Shown here in pieces: positions 60,001 to 63,000 of a stretch of 64,000 nt of DNA. Origin of the DNA: Cyclobacteriaceae bacterium (GTDB lineage Bacteria > Bacteroidota > Bacteroidia > Cytophagales > Cyclobacteriaceae). The first letter of the stretch is position 1. The number at the start of each line of letters is the position of its first letter. The DNA is taken from the NCBI GenBank assembly GCA_035303945.1, contig DATGQZ010000015.1, forward strand, positions 70,100 through 134,099, read 5' to 3'. A program made the position numbers.

Positions 60001-63000
60001 TTCAAGTTCAGAGACGTCAAGACACAGGCGAATGTTTGGGTATTGTTTTAGACAATTTACAAATAAGGGGAGAAGTTTGTAGTAATCTGAAGGAACTAAA
60101 GTTTTTCTCGCTTTCGCAGCGATTACTTTTCCTCCTGTGAATGCTAATATTTGTACCATTATGTGATATTCATTTAAAGTTGTAATTTATGAGCCAGCGC
60201 GAGCCAGCCAAGTTCCTATAGACAATCCTGCAGCCAATTTTTGTTTCGTGTTATTTCTGTAGTATTTCGAAAAGCTTCTTTAAAATGTATGTCATTGGTC
60301 TCCTGTTTTTTAGCTTAAGACGATGTTGCGTATTGGCGGGATAATTGTATGCCGGCATTGTTTATTTAGACTGAATCTTTTGGGAAAAAATCGTGGCGCT
60401 TTTGTGGCTTAGCGGTAACAGTGGTTTGATCAACAATTGTAATTTGCAAATTAGCTTTTCACCAATAGCCAATGGCTTTTTGGGCTTTCTTTACGCTGAA
60501 CTACCCTTTCGGAAATCTTCTTTCGTAGCTTATTGATTGATCATGTTCAACTGCATAAAGACAAATATGGTATTGGTATGGTGTTAGTTAAGGTATTGAT
60601 CATAATAAACACACAAATCGATGAGCTATGAATAAAAGAAGAGAGGAAAAACAAACATGGTTGACTGCGGTGATTAAAGGATTTGCAGTGGTAGGATTAG
60701 TGACCTTCTTGGGAGCAGCTTCCTGCGGTGGTGATGACAATAATAGTGATGGCACAACCACTGGTACAACCACCGGTACTACGACAGGGACCACAACGGG
60801 TACAACTACCGGGACCACAACGGGTACGACTACCGGGACTACAACAGGTACAACTACCGGAACTACAACTGGCACAACAACGGGTACAACCACCGGAACC
60901 ACTACGGGGACTACGACAGGTACGACTACCGGAACTACAACGGGTACGACAACTGGAACAACGACTGGTACAACCACAGGAAGCACTACGGGTACCACAA
61001 CAGGTACTACAACCGGAACAACCACAGGAACCACTACCGGTACCACCACAGGAACCACCACCGGCAGTACTACTGGATCTACAACAGCTGGCCTAAGAAG
61101 CTAGAACCTCCTGAATTGTTGCACACCAAACTTTAGGCAAAGACAACCTTTGCTTAAAGTTTGTTTGCATATCAGGGACCCAAACACCAACCAATAAGCA
61201 AATTGAACCGTGCGCGAAAATTTTTTCATTCAAGGCATCCGCTATGTTTTTACATTGGATTTGAGGGCCTTGGCATTGCTTAGGATTTCCCTATCCGTCC
61301 TTTTACTTTTAGATCTAATATTCCGTTTAGCTGACCTAAAAGCTTTTTACACGAGTGAAGGTGTTTTGCCGGCCGATGCGCTGTTCCGCTTCCAATGGAA
61401 TACCTGGTATTTCTCTTTATTTACGAGCAATGATAACGGGGCAATAACTAGCCTGTTATTCTTGGGATATTTTATCTGTATTTGCTGCCTACTGCTCGGC
61501 TTTAGGACCAAACTATTTACGTTCATCGTTTGGATGTGTCTTATATCCTTGCACAACAGAACGCCTCTCGTAACCCAAGCAGGTGACCATTTGTTACGCA
61601 TGCTGATCTTTTGGGGAATGTTTCTTCCTTGGGGTAATTTCCTTTCGCTAGATGCCTCTACCAAGAGGCGGAGCGCTGCCAGCCAACCTTATGCTTACGA
61701 ATCCTTTGCTTGTCTAGCCTACACTTGTCAGGTAGTTTTTTTGTATTTTTTTTCAGCAATTTTAAAAAATTCTCCTGAATGGCGTTCTGAGTTTACGGCC
61801 ATCTATTATGCATTGAGTTTAGATCAGCTCGTAAGGCCCGTTGGTGAATGGCTATATCCGCATACCTCCTTATTAAAAGCAATGACAGCAGGTGTTTATT
61901 ATGTCGAATTGGTACTTCCCTTGCTGCTTTTCCTTCCCTTTTTTAACTCGTGGTGTCGGCTCGCAGTTATTGTTGGCACAGTGTCTCTGCAGTTAGGTAT
62001 TTTTGCCACACTCAATGCCGGACTGTTTACCGCCACCAGTATTCTGATGATGGTGGGGTTATTGCCTCCCTCCACAATGGATAAAATATGGCCCTGGCTA
62101 TCTATTCGTGCTGGCTCAGCAATAGCCATGGCGAATCGCCTGCTCCCCTCGTATGCTATTTTTCGGGGTAAAACATTTATATCACGCAACTACTCCATAT
62201 TTTCTGAATCTGTGGTTGCCCTTGCTCTTGTATATGTATTGGCTTGGAATATGGGTACGATTGGGAAAAAAGTCATTCCGGATAAGTTATTATGGATAGG
62301 GTATTTTTTCAAACTGGAGCAACACTGGGCCATGTTTGCACCCACCGTATATAAAAATGACGGGTGGTTTATCTACCAGGGTACCAACGGTCAAGGGAGA
62401 TATATAGATATCTTGAGGGAAGGTCGGCCTGTAAACTATGAAAAACCAAAACGGGTCGCTGAATTGGTAAGGAACGATCGCTGGAGAAAGTATGGAGAAA
62501 ATATCCTCATGCAAAGCAATGCGCCGTTGAGACCGTACATGTGCGACTTTTTACTGAAAGAATGGAACAGCAGTCAACCACAGCAAGCCATTACCCATTT
62601 GAAAATTATCTACATGCACGAATTGACCTTGCCGAACTACCAAACTGCACCCCTCGAACGTTGGGAATTGTGTACTTGCTCTACCAATCCCTAAGCCTAA
62701 TCTTCTTTTATAATTTTGATATCTTTAAATTGATAGGGATTGTCACTGGTTCTAAGCACTTTGCCGCTTTCAATTTTGATATTTCTTAGGATTACTTCTT
62801 TGGGCCTGTAGTGGGGGAATTTTTCCTGATAGGTATCATCGGTCATATGGGGGTTGAAATTGGCAAATATGGAAGGACCCTCATATTCCTCAGGATGATT
62901 GGTGTCTACAATAGTCAGACCATCAATAATAATTTTTTCAGGCATATAGGTTGGATACCCAAAGTCATGTTGACCATGATTCGATCCTCCAAAAAGGCTT

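Follow-up and report, generated by a model that had tools for sequence, protein, structure and literature searches.

A conserved pairing of a threonine/glycine tandem-repeat lipoprotein gene with a divergent GGCX/HTTM-fold membrane protein gene suggests a two-gene substrate–enzyme module

The DNA analysed here (the window, 64,000 nucleotides of contig DATGQZ010000015.1 from the Cyclobacteriaceae bacterium assembly GCA_035303945.1) carries two neighbouring genes on the same strand, one for a 158-residue exported lipoprotein made mostly of Thr-Thr-Thr-Gly units and the other for a polytopic membrane protein with the fold of human GGCX, the vitamin-K-dependent carboxylase, and of its bacterial HTTM relatives. 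The two genes are found side by side in several genera and families, and we propose that they form a conserved two-gene module, in which the exported repeat chain would be the dedicated substrate of a periplasm-facing, quinol-dependent enzyme. We give this proposal a probability of about one half. The further step, that the module carries out a new vitamin-K-type modification of a periplasmic Thr/Gly tandem-repeat protein, with menaquinol and O2 yielding the strong base, is put forward tentatively and we regard it as rather unlikely.

The product of the first gene has a simple layout: MNKRREEKQTWLTAVIKGFAVVGLVTFLGAASC is followed by GGDDNNSDG, by 27 uninterrupted tetrapeptides (25 TTTG and 2 STTG, together 68% of the 158-residue protein) and by the tail STTAGLRS. 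It begins as a lipoprotein, with a basic N-terminus and a hydrophobic stretch leading to GAAS-C33, as judged by inspection and with a regular expression for the lipobox. The mature protein consists of 81 Thr, 31 Gly, 5 Ser, 3 Asp and 2 Asn residues with one each of Cys, Ala, Leu and Arg, so that it is 64% Thr and 25% Gly and contains no Glu. Everything that the original prediction had said of this open reading frame (ORF), namely its signal and lipobox, the 27 units, their 68% share and the codon use, was confirmed from the sequence. It is the sole Thr/Gly-repeat ORF of its kind in the 3.95-Mb genome. Searches of Pfam and NCBIfam with the repeat protein returned low-complexity noise only (FliH, 'serine-rich'), and its AlphaFold2 (AF2) model is of such low confidence (pLDDT 56.8) that we left it uninterpreted.

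The proposal rests in the first place on the conservation of the pair. A scan of relatives, taking one genome per species, gave 249 loci, of which the best 80 were analysed together with one metagenomic contig. These 81 loci come from Roseivirgaceae metagenome-assembled genomes (MAGs), Anditalea, Pontibacter, Hymenobacter, Adhaeribacter, Rufibacter, Sabulibacter and Botryobacter, and their counts are phylogenetically clustered, the majority belonging to one large family (Hymenobacteraceae-type genera). At 65 of the 81 loci (enzymes 39–67% identical) a signal-peptide ORF with Thr/Ser/Gly repeats lies on the same strand and ends 48–250 nt upstream of the enzyme gene, and at two more a repeat ORF is found 0.5–0.9 kb upstream. 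The window has the same arrangement, with the enzyme ORF beginning 105 nt downstream of the repeat gene on the same strand, as had been noted originally. The upstream repeat proteins are ~90–290 residues long and consist almost wholly of TTTG, TTSG, TTG or TSGS units. In the two nearest relatives (L001 and L002) these proteins have the same N-terminus as the window protein, 'LGAASC(G/D)G…N(N/D)DGTTTG'.

All 67 orthologous repeat ORFs start with a basic N-terminus and a hydrophobic stretch, after which comes either the Cys of a lipobox or a cleavage site of the AxA type. The Cys is present in ~57 of them, while ~10, in subsets of Hymenobacter and Adhaeribacter, lack it and are of the signal-peptidase-I type ('…ALAQTTT'-like). 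Membrane tethering, as initially suggested, is therefore supported for the window protein by its lipobox, but lipid anchoring is not universal in the family. Most lipobox-type orthologues have a spacer rich in D, E, N and T, which is absent from the signal-peptidase-I variants of Hymenobacter, and the orthologues likewise finish in 1–8 non-repeat residues (…TTTM, …TTPR, …STTR, …TTGR). Two or three repeat genes in tandem are frequent upstream of the enzyme in Hymenobacter (for example at L054, L059, L027, L070 and L016, 0.1–1.8 kb upstream), and at five loci, four of them from Pontibacter and one from a MAG (L008, L023, L038 and L079; L012), an extra repeat gene sits directly downstream of the enzyme.

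The association is reciprocal when whole genomes are compared. In 301 genomes drawn evenly from across the order the enzyme occurs in 28 (16 of 134 genera) and DNA coding for ([ST]T[ST]G)x3 in 15. The enzyme is present in 14 of these 15 repeat-bearing genomes (Fisher p = 1.4e-15), with the two genes within ~1.1 kb of each other in 11, and a reversed control pattern is nearly absent from the 301 genomes. The pairing is also specific to this enzyme clade, since not one of 25 canonical Bacteroidota HTTM loci examined as a control has a Thr/Gly/Ser-rich ORF (the highest T+G+S fraction was 0.63). The neighbourhood survey recommended in the original prediction thus comes out clearly positive across several genera and families; co-occurrence in other genomes, on which the idea had been staked, is indeed found, and the idea survives on this point.

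What is the second protein? It had been called an HTTM enzyme, and this label holds by fold and profile comparison rather than by domain search. A six-frame search of the window genome with the HTTM model (PF05090) found nothing; its homologues form a coherent family of ~490–540 residues, some of which carry the NCBI name 'HTTM domain-containing protein', and 5 of 16 family members give weak PF05090 matches (best E = 1.7e-5), with one member matching the LMF1 model. The AF2 model of the enzyme, built on 16 homologues, is of good quality (pLDDT 82.8, pTM 0.84), and in a Foldseek search of the PDB its top 16 matches are all human GGCX (E from 5e-7 to 2e-2, probability 0.99–1.0), the next match being at E = 0.3. 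The structural alignment with GGCX extends over ~510 columns at a TM-score of ~0.5. PDB searches by sequence, whether started from the family profile or from two of the homologues, did not match GGCX. At the sequence level the link emerged only with a bridging profile, which we prepared from 25 canonical Bacteroidota HTTM proteins and human GGCX (the human sequence was verified against PDB chains), and to which the profile of the enzyme family aligns in hhalign with 97.4% probability and E = 1.4e-11 over 260 columns in local mode and with 98.5% probability and E = 2.5e-14 over 417 columns in global mode.

The residues that activate the quinol in GGCX appear to be in place. In an alignment of 82 family members (39–100% identity) the GGCX-equivalent quinol-activation residues K186, W191, E233, F273 and W373 are invariant in all 82 and M375 in 81, the equivalence being one of aligned positions. 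In GGCX the counterpart of the lysine, K218, is the general base deprotonating vitamin K hydroquinone, W223 stacks on K218, D263 is the acid beside it, F299 stacks on CO2 and the backbone of M401 touches both K218 and bicarbonate (PMC12647623). The residues that bind the Glu carboxylate in GGCX (N159, H160 and Y395) are not conserved in the window family: the region of N159/H160 contains a 5-residue indel and is aligned differently in two runs, with a His in neither, and Y395 aligns to F367 of the window enzyme in the global hhalign comparison. From these alignments we conclude that the enzyme belongs to a divergent clade of the GGCX/HTTM superfamily, in which the predicted quinol-activation site is intact and the predicted substrate site has been remodelled. 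As for the quinol, menA is present in the genome (C7:183200-184048), and menaquinone is expected to be made because MenA is encoded.

How might the two products work together? The repeat protein would be exported by the Sec pathway and, here, anchored by lipid, presenting what is essentially a 108-residue (Thr-Thr-Thr-Gly)n chain without a globular domain. By analogy with GGCX, the active site of the enzyme would face the periplasm, where the repeat protein arrives, and the short basic N-terminus of the enzyme and the three Cys conserved in its C-terminal domain are consistent with such an orientation. Again as in GGCX, the enzyme may produce a strong base with the help of menaquinol and O2, and it may work processively along the chain as its dedicated substrate. 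Since the mature repeat protein has no Glu, the chemistry would have to be other than Glu carboxylation, and a Gla-type (γ-carboxyglutamate) substrate was rejected on the same ground. We envisage three options. A proton could be abstracted from the Gly alpha-carbon and CO2 captured to give aminomalonate, in keeping with the conserved CO2-stacking Phe; alternatively the Thr alpha-carbon could lose the proton, with epimerisation as the outcome in the second option and beta-elimination (dehydration) in the third. The sequences, the conserved adjacency, the fold, the invariant residues, the hairpin and the scrambled codons are observed; how the enzyme is oriented, that it depends on a quinol, that the repeat chain is its substrate and that anything is modified are what we infer from them.

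The organisation of the locus bears on expression. The 105-nt spacer between the genes folds into a stable stem-loop (–33 kcal/mol, z = –4.65), and not one of 200 shuffled sequences was as stable. Among 61 orthologous spacers the best hairpin has z < –2 in 59 (mean z = –5.2), and the majority of these hairpins resemble intrinsic terminators of the classical kind, in which a GC-rich stem stands between an A-tract and a T-tract. In the window spacer a simple terminator scan called no site and the U-tract is weak. Co-transcription, for which the original prediction had suggested a test, cannot be assumed, because a strong terminator-like hairpin separates the genes here as it does in those 59 orthologous spacers. 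The repeat gene probably stands alone as a highly expressed unit, and the enzyme gene is probably expressed at a lower level by read-through, or else from its own promoter. Where an abundant precursor is served by a catalytic modifier, the structural gene usually comes first, with a leaky terminator between it and the enzyme gene.

Several observations weigh against the enzyme–substrate proposal. The 494-residue protein matches nothing in Pfam or NCBIfam, even at E = 10, and the C-terminal stretch of the global alignment with GGCX has low per-column confidence. No VKOR homologue that could recycle a quinone epoxide was found in the window genome, and on this ground we rejected a vitamin K epoxide cycle. 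The repeat contains neither Glu nor Asp, so that no known HTTM chemistry fits it, and its length varies from ~42 to 240 residues among orthologues, which would also suit a passive spacer or brush. The hairpin could act as a full terminator, the two genes then being independent units. Finally, the enzyme is not strictly tied to Thr repeats, because ~14 of the 81 loci have a different gene upstream in place of a repeat gene (one of them lies on a contig too short to judge).

The loci with other partners fall into recognisable types. In three Roseivirgaceae MAGs (L005:3120-3338, L006:3670-3906 and L022:3686-3922) the upstream gene encodes a single-transmembrane protein of 72–78 residues that ends in a conserved K/E/Q/G-rich tail (…YQDQSKSGKEKGLTKEAKTGN…), has Glu and Asp among its residues and may be an alternative partner or substrate of the enzyme. 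At L056:3355-3921, L071:3295-3882, L073:3438-3995, L041:131-499 and L065:3244-3816, which belong to more distant enzyme members, it encodes a lipoprotein in which a Thr-rich linker leads to a Cys-containing beta-rich domain of ~130 residues ending in …GQVGCL or …SCQ. The lipoprotein at L065 unites a (TTTG/TTSG) stretch with the Cys-containing beta domain, and this combination suggests an evolutionary link between the two types of partner. The rule for the clade seems to be an enzyme with a small exported protein encoded upstream, of which the pure Thr-repeat form is dominant.

Could the two genes be functionally linked without the repeat protein being the substrate? The repeat protein might be a hydrophilic and probably disordered brush or tether, at the surface or in the periplasm, or might act as the enzyme's partner or regulator. 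The enzyme itself would then have its true substrate elsewhere, in a lipid, a quinone or some other envelope protein, or would have an LMF1-like redox function. We consider this possible but doubtful. It would accommodate the lack of a globular domain and the low AF2 confidence of the repeat protein, the great variation of the repeat in length and unit type, the other small exported proteins with which some orthologous enzymes pair, the family member that matches the LMF1 model and the genome's lack of VKOR. However, the strict conservation of the quinol-activation residues and of the CO2-site Phe points to an active GGCX-type catalyst, which needs a C–H acid as substrate, and a dedicated upstream partner at 65 of the 81 loci is the pattern of a precursor and its modifier. 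A brush function, moreover, gives no reason why the repeat proteins should be almost confined to genomes that carry the enzyme.

A protein that is exported and 64% Thr when mature could also be a mucin-like O-glycoprotein, modified by the general Bacteroidota system or by another glycosyltransferase, with the HTTM-like neighbour not involved at all. Ser/Thr-rich linkers of Bacteroidota lipoproteins are often glycosylated, and this counts in favour of such an explanation. Against it, the Bacteroidota O-glycosylation sequon D-[ST]-[AILVMT] has 0 matches in the 158-residue protein, no glycosyltransferase gene is a conserved neighbour, and the exclusive association with the enzyme is left unexplained, so we hold it to be quite improbable. 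General O-glycosylation was rejected for want of the sequon. Glycosylation had been offered in the original prediction as an example of what the enzyme might do, and this too found no support: the sequon is absent, and the HTTM fold is not one that glycosyltransferases have.

A little less probable still, in our view, is that the adjacency is inherited synteny devoid of functional meaning. It is true that most loci come from one large family, which makes the counts phylogenetically non-independent, but the order, strand and hairpin-containing spacing (~85–250 nt) of the two genes are kept across loci while all the remaining flanking genes differ between genera and from those of the window. Clustering of the flanking ORFs of the 81 loci revealed no further family conserved across the set and none in common with the window. 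The pair is also present in the lineage of the window, where 20 other sampled genomes of the same family have neither the enzyme nor the repeat gene; the two genes occur together there as an exception. The GC content shows no anomaly, and horizontal transfer judged by composition was rejected for this reason.

The repeat array encodes a regular peptide in irregular DNA. The Thr codons are ACA (25), ACC (23), ACT (19) and ACG (12), all four Gly codons are present too, and 25 of the 27 12-mer units are distinct. Relative to the consensus unit there are 2 mismatches among 216 codon positions 1 and 2 and 69 among 108 positions 3 (Fisher p = 1.7e-39), the longest exact repeat inside the array is 17 nt, and Tandem Repeats Finder, at periods of 24 and 84 nt, reports only ~76% matching. 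Neighbouring units tend not to share codons: in the window array their wobble positions are identical in 14% of cases, where shuffling within codon families would give 27% (z = –3.1). Over 45 orthologous arrays the same codon is used in adjacent units 400 times against 640 expected, a depletion present in 39 of the 45, with a z of –12.3 that overstates independence, as the arrays are phylogenetically related. The peptide repeat is thus maintained while the DNA is actively held non-repetitive, and the selection against slippage proposed in the original prediction is supported by this avoidance, both in the window and across the 45 arrays.

The accompanying argument from synonymous variation stands in so far as the region is protein-coding, but it leaves the strand undecided, as the antisense reading, (VVVP)n, shows third-position wobble too. 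This antisense frame is open across the array and makes a shadow ORF of 153 residues that gene callers could mis-annotate. The sense strand is settled because the N-terminal signal peptide is conserved in the 67 orthologues, and we can agree that the repeat gene is genuine, its coding sequence being under selection and its product exported and furnished with a lipobox. That the repeat ORF is not a real gene, the array being non-coding repeat DNA or (VVVP)n the true product, hardly deserves belief. In its favour, the array has three open frames, and the sequences of seven orthologues are missing from the protein collection described below, with one locus lacking a gene call there. Against it, only the sense strand has the conserved signal peptide (MKK…, a hydrophobic stretch, then Cys or AxA), the antisense frames of the arrays have neither ATG starts nor conserved ends, codon positions 1 and 2 are held invariant, and the conserved terminator-like hairpin follows the ORF in the sense direction.

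Table 1. Features of the window discussed in the text, by position in the window
Feature	Position	Strand	Details and basis
Weak BNR/sialidase-like gene	57772–58968	+	upstream neighbour
Class-I SAM (S-adenosylmethionine) methyltransferase gene	58985–59746	–	upstream neighbour
SpoIIAA-like STAS gene	59731–60159	–	upstream neighbour
Antisense ORF, (VVVP)n	60600–61061	–	153 aa
Thr/Gly-repeat exported lipoprotein gene	60628–61104	+	158 aa, stop codon included; ORF call
Signal peptide and lipobox GAAS-C	60628–60726	+	Cys33 at 60724–60726; inspection and regular expression, PROSITE-type lipobox pattern
Acidic/Asn spacer GGDDNNSDG after the lipid-anchor Cys	60727–60753	+	ORF sequence
27 tandem [T/S]TTG units (ACN ACN ACN GGN) with scrambled synonymous codons	60754–61077	+	aa 43–150
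C-terminal tail STTAGLRS	61078–61101	+	ORF sequence
Intergenic stem-loop, terminator- or attenuator-like	61109–61177	+	core 16-bp stem 61127–61163; RNA folding
Divergent GGCX/HTTM-fold polytopic membrane protein gene	61210–62694	+	494 aa; AF2, Foldseek, hhalign
K186…W191 (LKNSPEW), aligned to GGCX K218 and W223	61765–61782	+	invariant 82/82
E233, aligned to GGCX D263 (acid next to K218)	61906–61908	+	invariant 82/82
F273, aligned to GGCX F299 (CO2-stacking Phe)	62026–62028	+	invariant 82/82
QHWAMFAP motif, aligned to GGCX S398-W399-D-M401-M	62320–62343	+	global hhalign, lower-confidence region; W373 82/82, M375 81/82
Convergent downstream gene	62697–63998	–	>433 aa, runs off the window

The other genes around the pair in the window are listed in Table 1. 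The BNR-like, methyltransferase and STAS genes upstream are not conserved beside the pair elsewhere. The convergent gene downstream has no Pfam match; its product is rich in N, G and T and has the look of a right-handed beta-helix, by eye only.

The repeat genes sit in a blind spot of annotation. Exact look-up of seven orthologous repeat ORFs found none of them in a collection of 15 billion proteins, a Pontibacter akesuensis assembly (L082:1945-2418) has the repeat ORF without a gene call, and one similar protein is named just 'lipoprotein'. When homologues of the repeat protein were sought, the 10 proteins returned were Thr-rich but unrelated; such a search misses the true orthologues because composition filters remove them. 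At one locus (L083) we considered that annotators might have called the antisense frame, an idea that was dropped as the minus-strand upstream gene there is a genuine, different lipoprotein. Because repeat genes are often missing from protein databases, neighbourhood surveys that start from annotation would miss the pairing, and in the full-text literature on bacterial HTTM proteins, linaridins and MloH we found no description of such a repeat-gene/enzyme pair.

Bacterial relatives of GGCX are widespread and, to our knowledge, a defined reaction exists for MloH alone and a defined ribosomal protein substrate for none. For an enzyme family with almost no known bacterial targets, the repeat protein is thus a candidate for the natural partner or substrate. 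If it is acted upon as proposed, no ribosomal protein before (TTTG)n would have been defined as the substrate of a bacterial GGCX homologue, and GGCX-type chemistry would be extended beyond acidic residues. Should the reaction be carboxylation of the Gly alpha-carbon, the product would be a periodic Ca-binding malonate polymer, analogous to Gla. The pair is a genetically minimal two-gene system present in many soil bacteria that are cultivable and non-pathogenic (Pontibacter, Hymenobacter, Adhaeribacter), which makes the function of bacterial HTTM enzymes directly testable through one small protein with or without one gene.

Among known systems, mucin-like and antifreeze-glycoprotein-type proteins resemble the window protein in their extreme Thr content, arranged in short tandem units, and in having no globular domain, but the window protein has neither the Bacteroidota glycosylation motif nor an associated glycosyltransferase. 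The canonical HTTM proteins of Bacteroidota (PF05090 with PF22777) belong to the same superfamily and phylum and are ~457 residues long, against 494 for the window enzyme. Their E-values are ~1e-50 against human GGCX and ~1e-80 against the Pfam HTTM model, whereas the window family barely reaches the latter. Their loci (L084–L108, e.g. L085:343-3766) have an imelysin (Peptidase_M75) gene upstream and one for a CarboxypepD_reg/Plug TonB-dependent receptor downstream, a three-gene context wholly different from that of the window clade, and the window genome has no canonical copy.

Human GGCX has the same overall fold as the window enzyme (Foldseek probability 1.0) and clear profile homology to it, and equivalents of its K218, W223, D263 (Glu in the window enzyme), F299, W399 and M401 are conserved in the window family. 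On the non-cytoplasmic side of the membrane it works processively over many residues of its exported protein substrate. The differences are that identity is merely 13–16%, that the window enzyme has no Pfam match to HTTM or to the VKGC lumenal domain, and that GGCX substrates are Glu-rich and carry a docking propeptide, while the candidate substrate in the window has 0 Glu and no recognisable propeptide.

In the linaridin clusters, which make RiPPs, peptides synthesised on ribosomes and modified post-translationally, an HTTM-type protein (LinG/CypH) is encoded beside a small ribosomal precursor in which all Thr become dehydrobutyrine, and deletion of the HTTM gene abolishes production, although it is unproven what part LinG has in dehydrating Thr. 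These clusters need LinE (an alpha/beta hydrolase) together with LinL, and as a rule LinM and LinT as well; the window pair has none of these as a conserved neighbour, and linaridin precursors are leader-core peptides of Actinobacteria, in contrast to the Sec signal and lipobox of the window repeat protein. With LinE and LinL absent and the role of LinG unproven, linaridin-like Thr dehydration was rejected save as an analogy. MloH, from malonomycin biosynthesis in Streptomyces, is a bacterial HTTM vitamin-K-dependent carboxylase shown to perform GGCX-type chemistry on an aspartyl unit, a non-Glu residue, of a substrate made by the same cluster. This substrate is a polyketide-nonribosomal-peptide intermediate with a carboxylate side chain, unlike the ribosomal repeat chain of the window, and MloH differs from the window enzyme in domain architecture. 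Known bacterial HTTM enzymes appear to act on peptide-like substrates encoded nearby (MloH, LinG/CypH), and by analogy we count this as support for the repeat chain being the substrate of the enzyme encoded next to it.

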